From a virus (lineage: Duplodnaviria; Heunggongvirae; Uroviricota; Caudoviricetes): DNA of 11,347 nt. Each line of letters begins with the position of its first letter. Position 1 is the stretch's first letter. The DNA lies in the IMG/VR virus record IMGVR_UViG_2617270980_000009. One strand, written 5' to 3'. Position numbers and translations under genes: made by a program. Below are positions 1 through 10,763 of this stretch, piece by piece. The notes under the pieces are model-generated. The model saw nothing but the letters and a program-made list of their open reading frames with translations, made no database searches and was not told the origin of the DNA.

Positions 1-261
1 TGAGTTTTTTAAATGGCGGAAAATCGTGTTGAGGCCAACGCCCATAATGCGGGCGGTTGCCCGGCATCCAACGCCATTCATGGCCATATCAATGATTTTC
101 TGGTGCGTACCGGGTTGAGAAGCGGTGTAAGTGAACTGCAGTTGCCATGTTTTACGGCAGTGAGAGCAGAGATAGCGCTGATGTCCGGCAGTGCTTTTGC
201 CGTTACGCACCACCCCGTCAGTAGCTGAACAGGAGGGACAGCTGATAGAAACAGAAGCCAC
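1..261 (-). CDS. insA: IS1 InsA transposase-regulator, 3'-truncated by the window edge; GTG start at 259-261 (minus strand)
   Basis: Minus-strand translation from the GTG gives [86 protein letters not shown], which matches IS1 InsA from memory. It is absent from the supplied ORF track, presumably because of the GTG start and because it runs off the window. Confidence 0.85.
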
Positions 262-316
262 TGGAGCACCTCAAAAACACCATCATACACTAAATCAGTA
301 AGTTGGCAGCATCACC
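1..316 (-). mobile_element. IS1: IS1 insertion sequence, partial: the IRL-proximal 316 bp; the rest lies beyond the left window edge
   Basis: Reverse complement of 253-316 reads GGTGATGCTGCCAACTTACTGATTTAGTGTATGATGGTGTTTTTGAGGTGCTCCAGTGGCTTCT, which matches the IS1 left terminal inverted repeat and insA leader as I recall them. The minus strand of 1-261 translates to an InsA-like protein. The element boundary is at 316; unrelated flank starts at 317 (atatgcggt...). Confidence 0.9.
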
Positions 317-483: not shown

Positions 484-2538
484 ATGTCAGACTCCAAGTG
501 GAAAATGCTCTCCGCCATGCCCGGAGAGTTTTCAGTCAAGGTTGCCGGTGGCACGGTGGCATTTATTGAAAGCCCTTTCCGCCCTTCGGGTAATAAAGGG
601 GGGATCACCTTCGCAGACTGCGTGATCCGCTTCAGCACGAAAGAGCCATTATGGGTAATGCCGGTATCCGGTAATCCCAGTGCAGAAATCACCAGTTCAG
701 GCGTGACTGGCATCATTCCAATCACATCTGACGTGGCCGGAACGCTCACGCCCTCCGACTGGAATGCACCGGATAACGCCGGGCCTTCCGGTAGCACGAA
801 TGGCAGCAGTTCAGAGCCGGAATATTACTTTGTTGTCATTCTCGCGGGTCAGTCAAATGGCATGGCCTACGGCGAGGGGCTGCCGTTACCGGATTCGTTT
901 GACCGCCCGGACCCACGCATTAAGCAACTGGCACGCCGCAGTACGGTAACGCCCAACGGTACGTCGTGTACATACAACGACATCATTCCGGCAGACCACT
1001 GCCTGCATGATGTTCAGGATATGAGCGGGATAAACCACCCGAAAGCTGATCTGGCAAAAGGCCAGTACGGGACTGTCGGTCAGGGGTTGCATATTGCCAA
1101 AAAACTGCTTCCCTATATCCCACAGAATGCGGGGATACTTCTGGTGCCCTGTTGTCGTGGCGGGGCAGCATTCACCACTGGAGCCGACGGCTCATTCAGT
1201 GAGGCCAGCGGTGCTTCCGCTGATTCTTCACGCTGGGGGGCCGGTAAACCTCTGTATCAGGACCTGGTAAGCCGCACCAAAGTCGCGCTGGCGAAAAACC
1301 CGAAAAACAAACTTCTGGCTGTGGTCTGGATGCAGGGAGAGGCAGACCTTGCCTCAGGAAGCCAGCAGCATAATAGTTTATTCACGGCCATGGTTCAGCA
1401 GTTCAGAACTGACCTGGCTCCGCTTGCTGCGCAGTGCGTGAGTGGAAATGCCACCACGGTGCCGTGGATTTGCGGTGATACCACGTATTACTGGAAAAAC
1501 GCTGGCACCGATAAATATGAGGCAGTATACGGTGGCTACAAAGGCAAGGAAGCACAGAAAATTTTCTTTGTACCGTTCCTGACGGATGAGAATGGACAGA
1601 GCACGCCAACGAATGCTCCGGCGGAAGACCCGGATATTGTGGCTGTCGGGTATTACGGTGCAGCATCCCGAACCCAGGGCAGTTTTGTTTCGACACAGCG
1701 TGACAGCCATTTCAGCTCATGGGCACGCAGGGGCGTCATTTCAGACCGTCTGGCCTCAGCTATTATGCTCCATGCAGGGCGCACGGCTGAACTGATGCGC
1801 GGGCAGACCGTGACACCACCGGATGAGAAGCCGTCACCTGATACACCATCAAAACCGTCCACGCCACCCGCAGACACCACGACGATGAGTACGCTATTTG
1901 CTTACCGGGCATCTGAGTCTGAAGGACGGTTGACACCACAGGGTTGGGCTGCCGGAGGTGGCAAGGCTCAAATCGTGGATGATGCCGGAGCTAGCGGGGG
2001 TAAGGCAATGAAACTGACCAAGGAAACAGGAAGAGCCCCCTGGTACCTTGAGCATGATGCTGGTAATGGTGCGGACCTGCTGGGTAAAGGTGGTCTTGTC
2101 AGTTGTCGTTTTAAACTCGATGGCGCGCTTACGGCTAATCAGTATGCACTGGCGCTGTACTGGCCGGTTTCTGCCCTGCCGCAAGGGGTTACTCTGGAAG
2201 GAAATGCCGGTCATAACCTGCTGGCATCGTTCTACGTACAGAGCGATGCCACAGACCTTAACGTGATGTATCACAAAGGAAACACGGCGCAGAACACGAA
2301 GCTGGGGTCATTCGGCGCATTTAATAACGAATGGCATACGCTGGGCTTCCGTTTTGCCGGTAACAACAGTATTGAGGTGACGCCGGTCATTGATGGTAAG
2401 GACGGGACACCATTCATGCTGTCGCAGTCTCCGGTCGGCACGTTTACGGCAGACAAGTTGCGCGTGACCGATATCACTAAAAATGCGACTTACCCGGTAC
2501 TGATTGACAGTATCGTGGTGGAAGTGAATAACGCGTAA
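484..2538 (+). CDS. SGNH/DUF303-family esterase, prophage NanS-p-like sialate (9-O-acetyl) O-acetylesterase, with a Pro/Thr-rich linker and a C-terminal ~230-aa beta-rich (lectin-like?) domain
   Basis: 684-aa ORF. A stop in the same frame at 448-450 makes the ATG at 484 the first available start; a weak SD (cagg/gaaaag) lies upstream. It carries a GQSN esterase motif (VVILAGQSNGMAYGEG) and downstream LLAVVWMQGEAD, typical of the sialate O-acetylesterase (SASA/DUF303) family. Linker TPPDEKPSPDTPSKPSTPPADTTT sits at about aa 440-465. The family assignment is from recall, not a search. Confidence 0.6.
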   Translation: MSDSKWKMLSAMPGEFSVKVAGGTVAFIESPFRPSGNKGGITFADCVIRFSTKEPLWVMPVSGNPSAEITSSGVTGIIPITSDVAGTLTPSDWNAPDNAGPSGSTNGSSSEPEYYFVVILAGQSNGMAYGEGLPLPDSFDRPDPRIKQLARRSTVTPNGTSCTYNDIIPADHCLHDVQDMSGINHPKADLAKGQYGTVGQGLHIAKKLLPYIPQNAGILLVPCCRGGAAFTTGADGSFSEASGASADSSRWGAGKPLYQDLVSRTKVALAKNPKNKLLAVVWMQGEADLASGSQQHNSLFTAMVQQFRTDLAPLAAQCVSGNATTVPWICGDTTYYWKNAGTDKYEAVYGGYKGKEAQKIFFVPFLTDENGQSTPTNAPAEDPDIVAVGYYGAASRTQGSFVSTQRDSHFSSWARRGVISDRLASAIMLHAGRTAELMRGQTVTPPDEKPSPDTPSKPSTPPADTTTMSTLFAYRASESEGRLTPQGWAAGGGKAQIVDDAGASGGKAMKLTKETGRAPWYLEHDAGNGADLLGKGGLVSCRFKLDGALTANQYALALYWPVSALPQGVTLEGNAGHNLLASFYVQSDATDLNVMYHKGNTAQNTKLGSFGAFNNEWHTLGFRFAGNNSIEVTPVIDGKDGTPFMLSQSPVGTFTADKLRVTDITKNATYPVLIDSIVVEVNNA

Positions 2539-2553
2539 GCAGGATAAAAAAAT

Positions 2554-2588
2554 CCCGCCGGTCAAAGAGCCATTTGTTGACTGGCGGG
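2554..2588. terminator. Hairpin (12-bp stem with one G-U pair, 11-nt loop) immediately 3' of the esterase gene; the T-tract is on the minus-strand side
   Basis: cccgccggtcaa (2554-2565) pairs with ttgactggcggg (2577-2588). On the plus strand it is preceded by aaaaaaa (2546-2552) and followed by non-U-rich sequence, so as an intrinsic terminator it reads better for leftward (minus-strand) transcription. Confidence 0.35.
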
Positions 2589-2703
2589 GGATATTCCAAA
2601 CCCATTAAGGAAAGCTACAACCTCTGACAAAGAAGACCATTATGTACGCGGTTACTTTTTAGCTGAAAACTGTTTCTGTAGTCAATATCAAAGGTAAGGT
2701 TAT

Positions 2704-2886
2704 ATGACATTTGTTCATACGATGCTGCTTTATTTCTGCACTGTGGTCAGTGCGTTATATCTGGTGAGCGGTGGTTATAAGGCCATCAGAAATTATGTTC
2801 GCCGCAAAATTGATGACGCAGCAGCTGAAAAGCTCAGTAAAACAGCGCAGGCAACTCCGCTCCCAAAAGACCCGACCCAGCCCTGA
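2704..2886 (+). CDS. Hypothetical small protein (60 aa) with one N-terminal hydrophobic helix and a charged Pro-rich tail
   Basis: ATG at 2704 preceded by aaggtaaggt (2691-2700). N-terminal MLLYFCTVVSALYLVSGG is hydrophobic. No family recognised. Confidence 0.45.
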   Translation: MTFVHTMLLYFCTVVSALYLVSGGYKAIRNYVRRKIDDAAAEKLSKTAQATPLPKDPTQP

Positions 2887-2921
2887 TTGCAGGGCTGTAT
2901 TCCCACATAAGGAGGATATAC

Positions 2922-3176
2922 ATGCCAGAGATTAAAGGCACCGTCACTGAAGTCCTGGTAAAACAGGCACTGTATTCCGGTGAAGTAAATAAATTACTGA
3001 AAGCGCAGGTCCGCAAGGATTTTGAGGCACAAATCGACACTTACGTTGATGAAGTGCTGGCAAAACTTATTGGGCCAGCAGTTGCGGCCAGTGATGCTGA
3101 TAATGAGCCGAAAACCGACGCGCAGCCAGAGCAACCAGACCCGGCTCAGCCCGGAACTGACAGTACCATGATGTAA
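2922..3176 (+). CDS. Hypothetical acidic protein (84 aa) with a Pro/Gln/Asp-rich C-terminus
   Basis: Consensus SD aaggagg (2909-2915) sits 6 nt upstream of ATG 2922. Followed by a short palindrome aaaccgg...ccggttt (3184-3208). No family recognised. Confidence 0.5.
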   Translation: MPEIKGTVTEVLVKQALYSGEVNKLLKAQVRKDFEAQIDTYVDEVLAKLIGPAVAASDADNEPKTDAQPEQPDPAQPGTDSTMM

Positions 3177-3343
3177 CAATACAAACCGGTGGTGTCCTCT
3201 GCCGGTTTGACACTAATGAAAACATCTTTGCCGCTATCCAGCCATATGTAATCGCTGGATAGTATTTCGTATTCAGAAATATAGCTGCTTATGGAGCAGT
3301 CAATCCTGCTTCCCCATCCGGGCAGGCAAATGAACCGGTATCA

Positions 3344-3637
3344 TTAGTCCGATTCACGCTTTTGTAGAATCGTTCCCAGAATGCTATACAGCTCATTAGC
3401 CTGTTGCTCCATCATTGAGACGGAGGCTATACGGTGCAAAGTGATTTCAGGAGGTGGCACACCTCCATCTTCTTGCTGTGGAGGAAAAACATAAGATTTA
3501 ATAAAAAAGTTGAAGCATATGAACTCTCCCGCACTCGAACTGTATTTGCAGGCATCTGAATAATCGGAAAAATAATCATTATAGATTTCCGCATTTTCAA
3601 TCATTTTTCGATTTCTCGTCGTTACATGATTGTCCAT
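3344..3637 (-). CDS. Hypothetical protein (97 aa) in an AT-rich island, transcribed divergently from the com/mom-like pair
   Basis: Minus-strand ORF with SD aagagg (reverse complement of 3643-3648) 5 nt upstream of its ATG (3637-3635). Codon usage is AT-rich and unlike the flanking lambdoid genes. No family recognised. Confidence 0.5.
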   Translation of the reverse strand: MDNHVTTRNRKMIENAEIYNDYFSDYSDACKYSSSAGEFICFNFFIKSYVFPPQQEDGGVPPPEITLHRIASVSMMEQQANELYSILGTILQKRESD

Positions 3638-3760
3638 AGCAGCCTCTTACGCTGGCAATTAACCAATTGACTTCTATAAATTAGTTGATTTGTTTGCTTT
3701 GCGGTATTCAAATGTACAATCATTCAGCACTTATGCGTTACAGCACCGTTTAAAATTAGT

Positions 3761-3850
3761 GATCAAACTCATAAATTTTCGCTAATGACATTTCGTGTTA
3801 TTTGTTGTATCAATTAAATAAATCAAATCGATCGTTTTTGTCGATCGATT
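3761..3850. promoter_or_regulatory. Putative regulatory region upstream of com: perfect inverted repeat AATCGATCG-n7-CGATCGATT (3826-3850) and three GATC (Dam) sites at 3761, 3830 and 3843
   Basis: Read directly from the sequence. Both arms contain the palindrome CGATCG. The region lies in the 256-bp AT-rich divergent intergenic space between the 97-aa ORF and com. Confidence 0.4.
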
Positions 3851-3893
3851 GAGTGATAAAGATATCAACAACAAAGCAGGAGGTTATGCGGCC

Positions 3894-4094
3894 ATGTATC
3901 GAAACATACGGTGCCGACATTGTAACAAGCTACTGGCACGAGCCAGCTTCAGTTATCTGGAAGTCAAATGTCCGCGCTGTAAAACCCTCAATCAAATCAC
4001 ATCTCAGAGCGCCACAGAGCACCCCACATACACAAGGAAATCCTGTCGTGGGGAACAGAAAGCAAGTTACATCCCGTATCATCAGCACGCCTGA
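3894..4094 (+). CDS. com: Com-like zinc-finger translational activator (phage Mu Com homolog), 66 aa
   Basis: [45 protein letters not shown]... aligns with Mu Com as I recall it (MKSIRCKNCNKLLFKADSFDHIEIRCPRCKRHII...EHPTEK), including the CxxC...CPRC zinc-binding cysteines. SD aggagg (3878-3883) is 10 nt upstream of ATG 3894. The track ORF start at 3849 is rejected because it has no SD. Confidence 0.7.
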
Positions 4095-4785
4095 ACTTAT
4101 TCACTATAACGACAATATCGTCGGTTATGGCTCCCGTGAGTTACGGGTTGAGACAATAAGTTGCTGGCTGGCCCGGCTGGTCGTCGTCAATAAACATTAC
4201 AGCCATCGTTTCGTAAATAATTCCTACCTTCATCTGGGCATATTTTCAGAACGGGAGCTGGTTGGCGTAATGCAATGGGGTTATGCCCTTAATCCAAACA
4301 ATGGTGCACGCGTCGTAACTGGCACGCAGAACCGCGAATATATGGAGCTTAACCGGTTATGGCTGCATGACTGTATGCCGAGAAACTCCGAATCAAGGGC
4401 AATCAGTTACGCGCTCAAACTAATCAGACAACTTTATCCGCAGGTGCAGTGGGTTCAGTCGTTTGCAGATGAGCGTTGTGGCTGTCTTGGTGTCGTGTAC
4501 CAGGCAAGCAATTTTGATTATGTAGGCAGTCATGAAACAACATTCTATGAACTTGATGGCGAGTGGTATCACGAGATTTGCAAGAATGCAATCAAACGAG
4601 GAGGACAGCGAGGTGAACATCTGCGGGCTAATATCGACAGAGCCAGTGTTCATAAATTCCGTCAGTTTCGTTACATCCGGTTTCTGGACAAGAGAGCCAG
4701 AAAACGCCTTAACACAAAGCTATTCAAAGTCCAGCCTTACCCAAAACCACAAACAGTTAAAACTGGTTTGAAAGAGAGTGAATGA
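4048..4785 (+). CDS. mom: Mom-like DNA modification protein (phage Mu Mom homolog, adenine-modifying anti-restriction function); start inferred as GTG 4048, overlapping the 3' end of com
   Basis: Long ORF in frame 1 directly overlapping a Com homolog, as in Mu. There is no in-frame ATG between 3886 and about codon 137, whereas GTG 4048 has an upstream AGGA (4035-4038) and gives ~245 aa, close to Mu Mom (~231 aa). Assignment rests mainly on synteny with com and on size; I cannot verify Mom sequence motifs from memory. Confidence 0.55.
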
Positions 4786-5701
4786 ACGCTTAAAAACTCA
4801 TTCTAAAACTCAAAAGAAAAGCGCCGATTTAGTATCAAATAAGTTGCGTATCGGCGTTTTTCAGCGGTATCAAATGAAATGCAAATCGGTATCAAAAAAA
4901 TCGCCGCGCTATAGTATCCGTGAGAACGACGACGGCACGTATGCCATCACCGCCGTGCAGCATGTACCGGAAAAAGAGGCCATCGTGGATAACGGGGCGC
5001 ACTTTGACGGCGACCAGAGCGGCACGGTGAATGGTGTCACGCCGCCAGCGGTGCAGCACCTGACCGCCGAAGTCACCGCAGACAGCGGGGAATATCAGGT
5101 GCTGGCGCGCTGGGACACGCCGAAGGTGGTGAAGGGCGTGAACTTCCTGCTCCGTCTGACCGTAACAGCGGATGACGGCAGTGAGCGGCTGGTCAGCACG
5201 GCCCGGACGACGGAAACCACATACCGCTTCAGGCAACTGGCGCTGGGGCGTTACACGCTGACGGTCCGGGCGGTAAATGTGTGGGGACAGCAGGGCGATC
5301 CGGCGTCGGTATCGTTCCGGATTGCCGCCCCGGCAGCGCCGTCGCGGATTGAGCTGACGCCGGGCTATTTTCAGATAACTGCCACGCCGCATCTTGCGGT
5401 TTATGATCCGACGGTACAGTTTGAGTTCTGGTTCTCGGAAACGCGGATTACCGATATCAGGCAGGTTGAAACCACAGCCCGCTACCTTGGCACGGGACTG
5501 TACTGGATAGCCGCCAGTATCAATATCAAACCGGGCCATGATTATTATTTTTACGTTCGCAGTGTGAACACCGTTGGCAAATCGGCATTCGTGGAGGCCG
5601 TCGGTCAGCCGAGTGATGATGCAGAAGGCTACCTGGATTTTTTCAAAGGCAAGATACCGAATCCCATCTCGGTAAAGAGCTGCTGGAAAAAGTTGATCTG
5701 A
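4778..5701 (+). pseudogene. J: Lambda J-like host specificity (central tail fibre) gene, internal fragment: 5'-truncated remnant (J homology starts near 4907) ending at a frameshift
   Basis: From about codon 44 the translation ([35 protein letters not shown]...YLDFFKGK) matches the C-terminal third of lambda J as I recall it. The first ~43 codons are AT-rich junction sequence. A 1-nt loss near 5654-5657 (ata-ccg where a functional gene would read ata-acc-gaa) shifts the frame and gives a premature stop at 5699-5701. Confidence 0.8.
4821..4861 (+). terminator. Possible rho-independent terminator after the mom-like gene
   Basis: gcgccgat (4821-4828) pairs with atcggcg (4850-4856), followed by ttttt (4857-4861). 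The 21-nt loop is long, so confidence is low. Confidence 0.35.
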
Positions 5702-5802: not shown

Positions 5803-6630
5803 GTGGGCTGTGAAGCTGAGCAGACCAAAGACGGAAAACATTATATTGCGGGTATCGGTGCCGGTATTGAGAACACCCCCGACGGCATGCAGAGTCAGGT
5901 GCTGCTGGCGGCAGACAGGATTGCGATGATTAATCCTGCGAATGGCAACACAAAGCCGATGTTTGTTGGTCAGGGCGATCAGATATTCATGAACGACGTG
6001 TTCCTGAAGCGCCTGACAGCCCCCACCATTACCAGCGGTGGCAGTCCTCCGGTATTTTCCCTGACACCAGACGGGCGACTGACGGCGAAAAATGCGGATA
6101 TCAGTGGCAGTGTGAATGCGAACGCCGGGACGCTAAACAACGTCACGATAAATGAGAACTGTACGATTAAGGGCATGCTGGAGGCGACCCAGGTCAGAGG
6201 CGATTTCGTTAAAACAGTATCCAAATCATTCCCGAAGAAGGCTGGTACGTGGGGTAACACGGAAACACCAAACGGGACGGTTACAGTCACTATCAGCGAT
6301 GATCATAACTTTGACCGTCAAATCATTATTCCGCCCATTATTTTTAACGGTGTGGCGTATGACGATCCTGGGAGCGGAAATAACCCCGGAGGCACGAGAT
6401 ACACAGGTTATGGTTTTGAAGTTCGCAAAAACGGCGTATTAATCGCATCCAGAGAAACTAAAGGGGCCATTCCCGGTAGTTACAGTGCAGTTATTGATAT
6501 GCCTAGTGGTGGTGGAAGCGTCACTCTGGAGTTTAAGATTTTCCAGAAAGGCAATCAGGGGGCAGGCAATATCACCGACTGTACGGTGATTGTGACCAAA
6601 AAGGCTGCTTCCGGCATCAGTATTCGTTGA
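5803..6630 (+). pseudogene. J: Lambda J-like host specificity gene, C-terminal receptor-binding portion, separated from the upstream fragment by frameshifts
   Basis: Translation [14 protein letters not shown]...[37 protein letters not shown]...GISIR matches the lambda J C-terminus from memory. J-like coding between 5659 and 5820 continues in other frames: [34 protein letters not shown] in frame 1 up to the stop at 5776-5778, then [18 protein letters not shown] in frame 2. Confidence 0.8.
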
Positions 6631-6700: not shown

Positions 6701-7300
6701 ATGCGTAAACTTTATGCCGCCATTTTGTCCGCAGCCATTTGTCTGGCCGTATCCGGTGCGCCTGCATGGGCATCTGAACATCAGTCCACGCTGAGCGCGG
6801 GGTATCTTCATGCCTCGACGAACGTTCCCGGCAGCGATGATCTTAACGGGATTAACGTGAAATACCGTTATGAGTTTACGGACACACTGGGGCTGGTGAC
6901 GTCATTCAGCTATGCAGGAGACAAGAATCGCCAGCTTACCCGTTACAGCGATACCCGCTGGCATGAAGATTCCGTGCGTAACCGCTGGTTCAGCGTGATG
7001 GTGGGGCCGTCTGTGCGCGTGAATGAATGGTTCAGCGCGTATGCGATGGCGGGTATGGCTTACAGCCGTGTGTCGACTTTCTCCGGGGATTATCTCCGCG
7101 TAACTGACAACAAGGGGAAAACGCACGACGTGCTGACCGGAAGTGATGACGGTCGCCACAGCAACACGTCTCTGGCGTGGGGAGCTGGCGTGCAGTTTAA
7201 CCCGACCGAATCCGTGGCCATTGATATTGCTTATGAAGGCTCCGGCAGTGGCGACTGGCGCACTGACGGTTTCATCGTGGGTGTCGGTTATAAGTTCTGA
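6701..7300 (+). CDS. lom: Lom outer-membrane protein (Ail/OmpX/PagC family beta-barrel), 199 aa with signal peptide
   Basis: Signal peptide [24 protein letters not shown]. Motifs [12 protein letters not shown] and the C-terminal [24 protein letters not shown] match lambda Lom from memory. SD agagg is 5 nt upstream. Position between J and stf is as in lambda. Confidence 0.9.
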
Positions 7301-7326: not shown

Positions 7327-7354
7327 AGCCCGCCTGTTCAGGCGGGCTTTTTTG
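7327..7354 (+). terminator. Rho-independent terminator downstream of lom
   Basis: agcccgcctg (7327-7336), loop ttc, caggcgggct (7339-7348), followed by tttttt. Confidence 0.6.
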
Positions 7355-7364
7355 TGGGGGGAAT

Positions 7365-10300
7365 ATGGCAGTAAAGATTTCAGGTGTACTGAAAGACGGC
7401 ACAGGAAAACCGGTACAGAACTGCACAATCCAGCTGAAAGCAAAACGTAACAGCACCGCGGTGGTGGTGAACACGCTGGCCTCAGAAAATCCGGATGAAG
7501 CCGGGCGTTACAGCATGGACGTTGAGTACGGTCAGTACAGCGTTATTCTGTTGGTGGAAGGATTCCCGCCGTCACATGCCGGGACCATCACCGTGTATGA
7601 AGATTCCCGACCCGGTACGCTGAATGATTTTCTCGGTGCCATGACGGAGGATGATGCCCGTCCGGAGGCTCTGCGCCGTTTTGAACTGATGGTGGAAGAG
7701 GTGGCGCGTAACGCGTCCGCGGTGGCACAGAACACGGCAGCCGCGAAGAAGTCAGCCGGCGATGCCGGCACATCTGCCCGTGAGGCGGCAACCCATGCGA
7801 CTGATGCTGCAGGCTCAGCACGCGCAGCCAGCACGTCAGCCGGACAGGCCGCTTCGTCGGCTCAGTCAGCGTCTTCCAGCGCAGGAACGGCATCAACAAA
7901 GGCCACTGAAGCGGAAAAAAGTGCTGCCGCTGCAGAGTCCTCAAAAAGCGCGGCAGCTACCAGTGCCAGTGCCGCGAAAACGTCAGAAACGAATGCTGCA
8001 GCGTCACAACAATCAGCAGCCACTTCTGCATCCACCGCGACTACGAAAGCGTCAGAAGCTGCCACCTCAGCCCGGGATGCGTCGGCTTCAAAAGAGGCGG
8101 CAAAATCATCAGAAACGAACGCATCCTCGAGCGCCAGTAGCGCAGCTTCCTCGGCAACGGCGGCAGCAAATTCCGCGAAGGCGGCAAAAACGTCCGAGAC
8201 GAACGCCAGGTCTTCTGAGACGGCAGCGGGACAGAGCGCCTCAGCTGCGGCAGGCTCAAAAACAGCGGCTGCGTCGTCTGCCAGTGCCGCGTCAACAAGT
8301 GCCGGGCAGGCCTCAGCCAGTGCCATCGCCGCCGGAAAATCGGCAGAAAGCGCCGCATCATCCGCTTCAACAGCCACAACGAAGGCTGGCGAAGCCACTG
8401 AACAGGCCAGCGCAGCAGCGAGGTCTGCTTCCGCAGCGAAGACATCCGAAACGAACGCGAAAGCGTCGGAAACCAGCGCAGAATCCTCAAAAACGGCAGC
8501 CGCATCGTCCGCCAGTTCGGCAGCGTCATCGGCATCATCTGCGTCTGCTTCAAAAGATGAGGCGACCAGACAGGCGTCAGCAGCGAAGGGCAGCGCCACG
8601 ACGGCATCCACGAAAGCAACAGAGGCGGCAGGCAGTGCGACGGCTGCATCTCAGAGCAAAACTGCTGCCGAATCTGCTGCGACTCGTGCAGAAGCTGCCG
8701 CTGATCGTGCTGAAGAGATTGCCGGTGCAGTTGCGATGGAAGACGCAAGCCTTACAACTAAAGGTGTTGTGAAACTTAGCAGTGCTGTCGATAGCACCAG
8801 TGAATCTTTAGCCGCGACACCAAAAGCAGTTAAGACCGCATATGATAATGCTGAAAAACGACTACAGAAGGATCAGAATGGTGCTGATATCCCCGACAAG
8901 GGCCGCTTCCTGAATAACATTAATGTTTACAGCAAAGGTGAAGTGGATCAGAAAAAGGGGATGCGATACGTTGTGGTAAATGCCCCGGCGGGTGTCCAGG
9001 AAGGTAAATATTATCCGTTAGTGATAAAAAGGAATGACAGCCATCGGGCATCCCGCGTTGTCATTTCAACGCCAAGTCGCACAGCTAATCACAGAATGAA
9101 TAACTGTGAGTTTAATGGTTTTGTTTGCGCAGGCGGCTGGACGGACCGGGGTAGCTATGCCTGTGGTATGTTCTGGGCTTATTCATCATCGGAACGCGCT
9201 ATTCATTCCATTCTGATGAGTAATAAAGGCGATACCGTAGACAGCGTATTCTATATAGAAGGTGGGGCATTTCCCGTAGAGGTCTTTTTAGAAGAAGGAC
9301 TTTCTGTTACTGCTCCTGCTTCTGATTATGTTGTTGCTGAAACGACTTATAAATTTGGCGCAACTGATCCTTATTCTGAATCAGTTGCGGTAAATTTAAT
9401 TTTAGATTTTAAACAAGGTAATGGATTTTATAGTTCGTATCCTGTTTTGAGTAAGTCAGACATTAGCGGTAATAAGGTTTACGCTAATGATGAAGTTATT
9501 GTCCGTAGTCAGAATGCGTTAAGGATGATTGCTGGCGATTACGGTGTCATATGGCGAAATGATGGAGCAAATACTTACTTGCTCATGACTGATAAAGGCG
9601 ACCAGTACGGTGGCTGGAACGGTCTTCGACCATTTGCAGTAAATAACGCAACAGGTGAAGTGACGATCAATACACCACTTAATTCTCCAAAAGGGGTTAA
9701 GGGGAACTCTGATACAGCTACGAAACTTCAGACTGCAAGAAAAATATCCGGTGTTCCATTTGATGGCTCTACTGATATCACTTTAACCGCCGCGCATGTT
9801 GCCGCTTTCGCAAGAAGAGCAACAGGGTCATATGCTGATGCTGATGGCGGCGTGCCGTGGAATGCTGAATCTGGTGCTTATAATGTAACTAGAACGGGCG
9901 ACAGCTATATTCTGGTTAACTTCTATACCGGAGTCGGAAGTTGCCGGACCTTGCAGATGAAGGCGCATTACAGAAATGGTGGTCTGTTCTACCGTTCTTC
10001 AAGAGACGGTTATGGTTTTGAGGAAGACTGGGCAGAAGTTTATACCTCGAAAAATCTTCCACCAGAAAGCTACCCAGTCGGCGCACCAATCCCGTGGCCA
10101 TCAGATACCGTTCCGTCTGGTTATGCTCTGATGCAGGGGCAGACTTTTGACAAATCTGCCTACCCGAAACTTGCAGCCGCTTATCCGTCAGGCGTGATCC
10201 CTGATATGCGTGGCTGGACGATTAAGGGCAAGCCCGCCAGTGGTCGTGCCGTATTGTCTCAGGAACAGGACGGCATAAAATCGCATACCCACAGCGCCAG

Positions 10301-10763
10301 CGCATCCAGTACGGATTTGGGGACGAAAACCACATCGTCGTTTGATTACGGAACCAAATCCACGAATAACACCGGGGCGCATACCCATAGTATTAGCGGG
10401 ACCGCAAATAGTGCCGGCGCGCACCAACACAAGAGTTCCGGTGCATTTGGTGGCACGAACACGAGCATTTTCCCTAATGGTTATACCGCGATTTCAAATC
10501 CAAGCGCGGGGATTATGAGCACAACAAGCGGTAGTGGCCAGACTCGTAATGCAGGGAAGACATCATCAGATGGTGCTCATACCCACTCGCTGTCCGGCAC
10601 TGCTGCAAGCGCAGGCGCACATGCACATACTGTCGGTATTGGTGCTCATACGCACTCCGTTGCGATTGGCTCACATGGACACACCATCACCGTTAACGCT
10701 GCGGGTAACGCGGAAAACACCGTCAAAAACATCGCATTTAACTATATTGTGAGGCTTGCATAA
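7365..10763 (+). CDS. stf: Side tail fibre protein Stf (lambda Stf / T4 gp37-like), 1132 aa, mosaic with an extended Ala/Ser-rich repeat region and an inserted low-GC central domain
   Basis: N-terminus [26 protein letters not shown]...[16 protein letters not shown] and C-terminus ...[31 protein letters not shown] match lambda Stf from memory. His-x-His repeats (GAHTHS, GAHAHT, GAHTHS, GSHGHT) are present near the C-terminus. The stop overlaps the tfa start (taATG at 10761-10765). Confidence 0.9.
7730..8700 (+). repeat. Low-complexity, GC-rich Ala/Ser/Thr repeat region inside stf, with recurring AAKTSETNA-type units
   Basis: Motifs such as [20 protein letters not shown] and KTAAASSAS recur in the translation. 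The same repetitive DNA yields long spurious ORFs in other frames and on the minus strand. Confidence 0.6.

Follow-up and report, generated by a model that had tools for sequence, protein, structure and literature searches.

Upstream of a com-mom cassette in a stretch of viral DNA of 11 347 nucleotides (IMG/VR record IMGVR_UViG_2617270980_000009; this whole stretch is referred to hereafter as the window) lies an inverted repeat that carries a GATC site in each arm. The locus raises the question of whether this repeat belongs to a switch governed by Dam methylation and OxyR, as in the mom operon of phage Mu, or whether it has another role or none. A sequence-only reading of the same DNA had drawn attention to three GATC sites within 90 bp and to the repeat, and had suggested either methylation-dependent control of the cassette or an operator for an unknown dimeric regulator. 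A literature search on mom regulation in this prophage lineage found no publication.

The com-mom cassette and its prophage

The right end of a Mu-like prophage lies within the window, and an alignment of five copies placed the prophage end at position 4913. The host site of the prophage is gene J, the tip-attachment gene of a lambdoid prophage, which is present from position 4914 on (Table 1). A Mu-into-Stx-phage insertion of the same type is annotated in LC727881 and LC727895, two Stx-converting phages.

The predicted Com protein is 45% identical to Mu Com and gave PHROG matches to 'gpCom control of modification' and 'translational regulator', while the predicted Mom protein is 78% identical to Mu Mom. 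The start of mom overlaps the 3' end of com, like in Mu. Judged by these matches, the cassette is a true com-mom homologue. The RefSeq product name for com is 'Com family DNA-binding transcriptional regulator'; since Mu Com is described in PMC6483171 as an RNA-binding translational activator of mom, this name is probably misleading when applied to the Com of the window. The minus-strand ORF on the other side of the intergenic region had no Pfam or PHROG match.

Identical or near-identical copies of region 3200-4900 were found in 233 of 5426 complete Escherichia coli genomes (~4%), always at the right end of a Mu-like prophage and at varied chromosomal sites (citF, ypdB, flgL and others). One full-length prophage copy, that of strain JE86-ST05, is 38.2 kb in size. 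In this prophage (L004) a 'tRNA-OTHER' is annotated at 1334-1413 between head morphogenesis genes, and many structural genes are marked as frameshifted.

Several further features of the surroundings were recorded. The end of an IS1 copy occupies positions 1-316 (minus strand), with its terminal inverted repeat GGTGATGCTGCCAACTTACTGAT at 294-316, and an InsA ORF running from 261 past the left edge of the window contains the Pfam InsA N- and C-terminal domains. Relatives have a gin-like recombinase where the window has IS1, so that the prophage copy in the window is interrupted by IS1. Cargo of ~3.4 kb separates the gin region from the region upstream of com, where Mu has nothing; from 484 to 3176 it resembles a typical lambdoid/Stx-phage late region, encoding a NanS-like sialate O-acetylesterase (SASA and DUF6645), DUF1378 and DUF826. 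Directly upstream of the putative operator described below is a swap point (3344-3799), at which O157-type relatives have a different ORF of 154 amino acids (phrog_26524) that begins only 114 bp from com. The string atcaattaaat (3809-3819) resembles a vestigial gin end; the Mu OxyR site itself extends over the 3' end of gin. Past the tail-fibre gene, a full-length Rfam match to IS009 (RF02111; 11106-11304, plus strand, 230.8 bits) lies inside or adjoining an ORF that starts at 10763.

Table 1. Positions of features in the window, with the basis on which each was assigned
Feature	Position	Strand	Basis and remarks
Divergent ORF	3344-3637	-	97 aa (RefSeq: 86 aa); shares its intergenic region with com
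Third GATC	3761-3764		Probably outside the switch
Putative OxyR half-site I, ATTTgTtgtAtCAAT	3800-3814		7/10 consensus positions; without GATC
Perfect 9-bp inverted repeat, AATCGATCG-n7-CGATCGATT	3826-3850		Two GATCs within
Dam site, homologous to GATC site 2 of Mu mom and GATC-II of agn43	3830-3833		Sequence alignment
Putative OxyR dimer half-site II, ATCGtTtttgtCGAT (ATCG-TTTTTGT-CGAT)	3831-3845		7/10 against ATAGnTnnnAnCTAT; a GATC in each arm
Candidate weak com-mom promoter	3838-3868	+	-35 TTGTCG (3838-3843), 19-bp spacer, -10 TATCAA (3863-3868); without scan support
Dam site, homologous to GATC site 3 of Mu mom and GATC-III of agn43	3843-3846		Sequence alignment
Alternative -10, TGaTAAAGA	3854-3862	+	Inferred only
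Shine-Dalgarno sequence of com, AGGAGG	3878-3883	+	From the sequence; 10 nt before the ATG at 3894
com	3894-4094	+	Zinc-finger translational activator of mom, 66 aa; identical copies annotated in RefSeq
mom	4048-4785	+	DNA adenine modification enzyme of 245 aa; match to Pfam Mom (PF25680), E = 1.6e-77
J Ig-like and C-terminal domains	4778-5701 and 5803-6630		Two ORFs, downstream of the Mu-like prophage
lom	6701-7300		Lambdoid part
Tail-fibre gene	7365-10763		Lambdoid part

GATC sites and inverted repeat: position and chance

The basic observations of the sequence-only reading proved correct: GATC sites start at 3761, 3830 and 3843, the 9-bp arms of the repeat at 3826-3850 are perfect and contain two of them, and the intergenic region (3638-3893, 256 bp) is AT-rich, with 34% GC compared with 51% for the whole window. 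The clustering of three GATC sites, which had been taken as a signal, did not survive randomisation. When the 21 GATCs of the window were placed at random, some span of 86 bp held three of them in 17% of trials, and therefore the three-in-90-bp cluster is not significant by itself; some pair lay at most 13 bp apart in 38% of trials. The count across the window that had been proposed as a check for enrichment pointed to depletion (21 found, 39.6 expected). The 256-bp intergenic region, with three GATCs against 0.7-0.8 expected from its own composition, is nominally unusual only. GATC enrichment was consequently dropped as insufficient evidence.

The inverted repeat likewise has company. A count of perfect 9-bp inverted repeats whose loop is at most 12 nt gave five distinct ones in the whole window (six raw, two of them overlapping), compared with 0.7 per window expected in Markov-1 random sequences, and the palindrome at 3826-3850 is thus not unique. 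The other four are found at 3234, 5768, 7327 and 9360, with loops of 2-12 nt; the one at 7327, just past lom, may be a terminator.

Statistics confined to the window do not, then, establish the feature, and it is conservation that lifts the 3830/3843 pair above chance. Across the 38.2-kb prophage of JE86-ST05, which contains 112 GATCs where 143 were expected, the only GATC pair spaced by 13 bp and the only ATCG-N7-CGAT are those upstream of com. The third site, at 3761, fared differently. Its aligned position is AATC in O157-type relatives, with which homology begins only at ~3785-3799, so the site lies outside the common block; it also lies 39 bp away from the OxyR-like site, in register with neither half-site, and a GATC at its offset was present in no relative except the near-identical lineage. 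GATC 3761 thus sits in lineage-specific DNA and probably does not belong to the switch. The analogy to the Dam/OxyR control of Mu mom that had been drawn for all three sites holds for 3830 and 3843, which are homologous to Mu sites 2 and 3, and fails for 3761.

Homology to experimentally defined OxyR/Dam sites

In the Mu genome (AF083977), the sequence just upstream of the annotated Pmom is cGATCgaatcaattaaatcGATCggtaatacaGATCgatt, and its counterpart in the window is atcaattaaataaatcaaatcGATCgtttttgtcGATCgatt. Within this region AAATCGATCG-N7-CGATCGATT of the window aligns with AAATCGATCG-N7-AGATCGATT of Mu, which contains GATC sites 2 and 3; the 13-bp spacing is shared, as are the flanks (AAATCGATCG ... 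GATCGATT), while other non-coding DNA aligns poorly. In Mu, the arms of the palindrome match at eight of nine positions (AAATCGATCG-GTAATAC-AGATCGATT), compared with the perfect 9-bp repeat of the window. Mu positions given here were derived from the annotated Mu record and our own counting.

The regulatory region of agn43 (flu) of E. coli K-12, tatcGATCgtttatatcGATCgataag, also contains a 13-bp GATC pair that was aligned with the pair of the window. The agn43 core TATCGATCGTTTATATCGATCGATAAG is nearly identical to AATCGATCGTTTTTGTCGATCGATTGAG of the window, and its arms read TATCGATCG-TTTATAT-CGATCGATA. The three-way alignment of the window with Mu mom and K-12 agn43 thus gives homology to an experimentally defined OxyR/Dam site, the experimental status of the Mu mom and agn43 sites being that given in PMC2909390 and PMC3378877. 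Control by Dam and OxyR is stated for agn43 as well as for Mu mom, and methylation of GATC abrogates OxyR binding (PMC2909390). At P22 gtr, GATC pairs are located at -110/-97 and -46/-33, each pair 13 bp apart and within one OxyR dimer half-site with the consensus ATAGxTxxxAxCTAT (PMC2909390).

Putative OxyR half-sites in the window

The arrangement G-ATCG-N7-CGAT-C yields exactly the 13-bp start-to-start spacing of GATCs, from which it follows that the inner palindrome at 3831-3845 corresponds to one putative OxyR half-site with a Dam site per arm; the GATCs at 3830 and 3843 flank ATCG-N7-CGAT in the arms of this half-site. An unknown dimeric regulator is therefore not needed to account for the dyad, the inner palindrome being read as a single OxyR half-site, as in P22 gtr and agn43.

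A partner was found 31 bp upstream. An OxyR tetramer is expected to use two half-sites offset by ~22 bp or, in the extended mode, by ~31-32 bp, and the pair of half-sites starting at 3800 and 3831 (offset 31) matched 14 of 20 consensus positions, which is the joint top two-half-site score when every position and offset of the 11.3-kb window is considered. Half-sites offset by 31-32 bp instead of 22 have reportedly been linked, by Toledano et al. in 1994, to the extended mode in which reduced OxyR binds. A passage on the OxyR binding mode is quoted in PMC4207228 and is taken to stem from Toledano et al. The consensus match of both half-sites is moderate, not strong; half-site II has G instead of the preferred A at position 10, and the AT-rich composition of the region inflates matches to the AT-rich OxyR consensus. 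Only two GATCs are present inside 3800-3845, compared with the three that are a hallmark of Mu and agn43.

Half-site I is a putative site that is not homologous to half-site I of Mu, and the breakpoint of the cargo insertion falls within it. It is identical in all E. coli relatives of the window type. Both half-sites are in fact invariant among the E. coli relatives, in which at least five variants of the 16 bp immediately downstream (3851-3866) were seen. This hypervariable stretch (gagtgataaagatatc, gcatgagaaaggcatc, tggtgagaaagatatc, aggcgagaaagatatc and tgatgaagcaaacatc among E. coli copies) separates the invariant putative operator from the conserved leader ATCAACAACAAAGCAGGAGG and covers the place at which one would look for a -10 element.

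A third half-site of the gtr kind, in register at ~3769 or making use of GATC 3761, was considered and rejected: the consensus match was poor by eye, and the site appeared in none of the listed pair matches for the region (at least 12/20). An Rfam scan returned nothing in the operator region.

Search for a promoter and an activator site of com-mom

A consensus promoter scan of 3200-4200 identified no plus-strand promoter. A strict search for -10 elements (A2, T6, at least 4/6) between the second GATC and com found none in the window, and recovered TAAGAT in the Mu control. The candidates in Table 1 are therefore put forward tentatively; a T5 run is present at 3835-3839. Loci L042 and L045 have TATCAT at the position of the TATCAA of the window, and other relatives have TATACT (L054 and L055), TATAGT (L056) or TGaTAGATT (L011), all 11-13 bp past the second GATC. 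Half-site II probably overlaps the -35 region under every candidate -10.

In Mu, the C protein binds a dyad just downstream of GATC site 3, overlapping the -35. A Mu-type C box (TTAT-N6-ATAA) was absent between the palindrome and com in the window. The com ATG follows the second GATC at a distance of 51 bp in the window and 78 bp in Mu, and only 32 bp lie between the end of the putative operator (3845) and the Shine-Dalgarno sequence (3878), so that there is no space downstream for the Mu succession of C box, -35, 19-bp spacer and -10. Given that the Mu-type C box is missing, the OxyR site probably overlaps the -35.

The full-length copy of JE86-ST05 encodes one Mor/C-family protein, of 140 amino acids (WP_000852372.1), which is 40% identical to Mu C and 28% identical to Mor; its gene is located just upstream of the lysozyme gene, outside the window. 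Ungapped comparison (14, 18 and 22 nt) of the region upstream of mom with those upstream of lys, I and P revealed no shared motif above the shuffled null. A T5 run that by eye had seemed common to these regions was not supported by the comparison.

Survey of com-mom relatives

Mom relatives were collected as 19 loci, with one genome per species, and as 80 IMG/VR loci representing 62 distinct upstream regions. The 13-bp GATC pair was present upstream of com in all but two of the Mu-type loci (Mom identity of at least ~77%). The two exceptions, L014 and L074, have only a GATC pair spaced by 18 bp. The 13-bp pair was absent from Mom relatives at ~69% identity, which are located mid-contig and in which, among those inspected, no com was detected upstream.

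Thirty distinct com-mom upstream sequences were anchored on the GATC pair, leaving positions 6 and 10 of the half-site as unselected consensus positions. Position 6 was T in 26 of the 30 and position 10 was A in 19 of the 30; many of the compared sequences are close relatives, and such counts overstate the number of independent observations. The best partner half-site was found at offset 31 (30 or 32 where indels were visible), upstream in every lineage except L010, in which it lies 31 bp downstream. A third GATC, where present, is at -18 or -31 from the pair, positions that coincide exactly with the right and left arms, respectively, of the partner; in L010 it follows the pair by 18 bp and occupies the left arm of the partner on that side. 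A missing GATC can be replaced by a canonical CTAT arm, as in half-site II of L010 and in L014, where the second GATC of the pair has become CTAT and the resulting half-site, ATCGtTtgtAtCTAT, matches at 9/10 positions. In more distant lineages the palindromic match between the outer arms is not kept.

Two architectures could be distinguished. The first GATC of the pair is 84-96 bp from the com ATG in the Mu type and 64-70 bp in the window type; the third GATC lies 18 bp upstream in the Mu type, and 31 bp upstream or nowhere in the window type, with none in the operator of the window and of the O157-type prophages. After the pair, the Mu type has a dyad for the C protein (ATTATgccccAATAA in Mu), whereas the window type has no C box. 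The architecture of the window was also found in Edwardsiella (L011) and in the IMG/VR loci L054-L056. In the latter three, the predicted com leader contains, between the -10 candidate and com, a small stem-loop with compensatory substitutions (GCCACcttccaGTGGC in L054, GCCGcctccatCGGC in L056) that is absent from the leader in the window.

A Dam-sensitive OxyR operator as the best explanation

Based on the observed homology, site geometry and conservation, the palindrome is best explained as the core of a putative Dam-sensitive OxyR operator that would gate com-mom and belong to the family of Mu mom, agn43 and gtr. We assign this reading a probability of roughly 0.75. Binding of OxyR, its sensitivity to methylation, the position of the promoter and any role of the phage C homologue are predictions.

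In the mechanism we propose, an OxyR tetramer (two dimers) in the reduced, extended mode would occupy the two 15-bp half-sites at 3800-3814 and 3831-3845, with half-site II presenting a GATC in each arm (3830 and 3843). OxyR would bind unmethylated sites, and probably also hemimethylated sites as in Mu, and repress com-mom; full methylation by the host Dam would block OxyR binding and allow com-mom transcription. With half-site II most likely lying over the -35 of a weak promoter, OxyR may exclude RNA polymerase directly, as at P22 gtr, where a direct block of RNA polymerase has been proposed for the OxyR(BC) site (PMC2909390). As no convincing plus-strand sigma-70 promoter was identified, this mechanism of repression, whether occlusion or interference with an activator, is a guess.

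A more far-reaching version would hold that the operator has shifted to a position over the core promoter, carrying two GATCs but no separate C box, and that com-mom is gated mainly by the methylation of two adenines, as in agn43 and gtr, which could give heritable ON and OFF states in lysogens. The odds against this version are long. If it were true, host DNA would be 'momylated' by the resident prophage in part of the cell population, and not only late in lytic growth. [quoted passage not shown]

Alternative explanations

The site could instead be an inherited, non-functional relic in a disrupted prophage whose com-mom cassette is perhaps no longer expressed or regulated. The replacement of the gin region by an IS1 copy at the left of the window is in keeping with this, as is the -10 region, which is poor in the window and worse in O157-type copies, and many E. 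coli copies belong to degraded prophages. Yet com and mom are intact in the window and identical to the copies from full-length prophages, and the invariance of the half-sites beside 16 variable bp suggests constraint over drift. A relic is therefore improbable.

The palindrome might also be the operator of a dimeric phage regulator, namely the single late activator of the Mor/C family, with the GATCs being incidental or modulating its binding. The lineage does encode one such C homologue, with the 40% identity to Mu C noted above, and as there is no room for a C box between the palindrome and com, any activator site would need to overlap the palindrome region. Neither the palindrome nor ATCG-N7-CGAT occurs anywhere else in the 38.2-kb prophage, including upstream of the equivalents of lys, I and P, whose upstream regions also had no motif in common with that of mom beyond the shuffled null. 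The sequence is moreover conserved in Mu, at a place distinct from the C site, and also in agn43, for which there is no phage activator. The conserved T6 and A10, together with a partner at 31 bp, accord with OxyR in particular. We consider control by the phage regulator through this palindrome distinctly improbable.

Least of all can the inverted repeat be expected to act as a hairpin, either as a weak minus-strand intrinsic terminator for leftward mom/com transcription or, should the com-mom transcript begin upstream of it, as a stem-loop in the 5' leader. A pattern scan did class it as similar to a minus-strand terminator (a stem of 9 bp, a loop of 7 nt and then TGATTTATTT), and RNA folding gave -11.2 kcal/mol (minus) and -13.6 kcal/mol (plus), with z ~ -2.3 to -2.4. 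What is conserved, however, is GATC and the unpaired T6 and A10, not the pairing of the stem. There is no covariation: half-site positions 4/12 are G-C in the window, and other lineages have G-A, A-C or T-C. In L054-L056, L011 and L012 the outer arms (AATC/GATT) lack complementarity. No minus-strand gene upstream needs termination, the plus strand has no T tract following and the minus-strand tail is only moderately U-rich. With the stem not maintained in relatives, a Rho-independent terminator was rejected.

Comparison with the Mu mom, agn43 and gtr switches

The operator assigned here to OxyR is of a type already known from Mu mom, agn43 and gtr, and is not a new kind of system. In Mu, region I of mom reportedly contains three GATC sites that are bound by OxyR (MomR) (Bolker & Kahmann 1989; Hattman & Sun 1997). 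The window has the same com-mom operon as Mu in the same genome position, at the right end of a transposable phage, and the partner half-site of Mu, ATAGAAAACGACGAT, lies 31 bp upstream, the same offset as in the window. Mu has a third GATC (site 1) 18 bp upstream, within half-site I (right arm); the corresponding position of the window is not GATC. Relative to the com ATG the operator extends from -121 to -76 in Mu and from -94 to -49 in the window, 27 bp closer. The C box ATTATgccccAATAA, a T6 run abutting TAAGAT, and a gin 3' end overlapping the operator are features of Mu only, with none of them in the window.

The partner half-site of agn43, ATAGAATAAAACGAT, is 32 bp upstream, and agn43 has three GATCs compared with the two in the putative operator of the window. 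The agn43 site overlaps the -10 and the transcript start, and the annotated IsrC/flu start coincides with GATC-I. What agn43 controls is a host adhesin, and phase variation is proven for agn43.

In P22 and Salmonella gtr, three half-sites 32 bp apart with four GATCs provide two OxyR positions, one activating and one repressing; the window has only two half-sites, with no third found in register. The gtr pair at -46/-33 overlaps the core promoter, which is the arrangement that we infer for the window.

The compact two-GATC architecture, a modest new detail, is common in prophages of Shiga-toxin-producing E. coli (STEC) and O157. It predicts protected GATCs at these two positions in methylomes, and would show how Mom, a toxic DNA-modifying enzyme, stays silent in lysogens. 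Taken together with Mu, the comparison suggests that the epigenetic switch of mom is a conserved, portable module, consisting of a 13-bp GATC pair in an OxyR half-site with a partner 31-32 bp away, and that the same module is present in agn43 and in the Mu-like prophages of ~4% of complete E. coli genomes.
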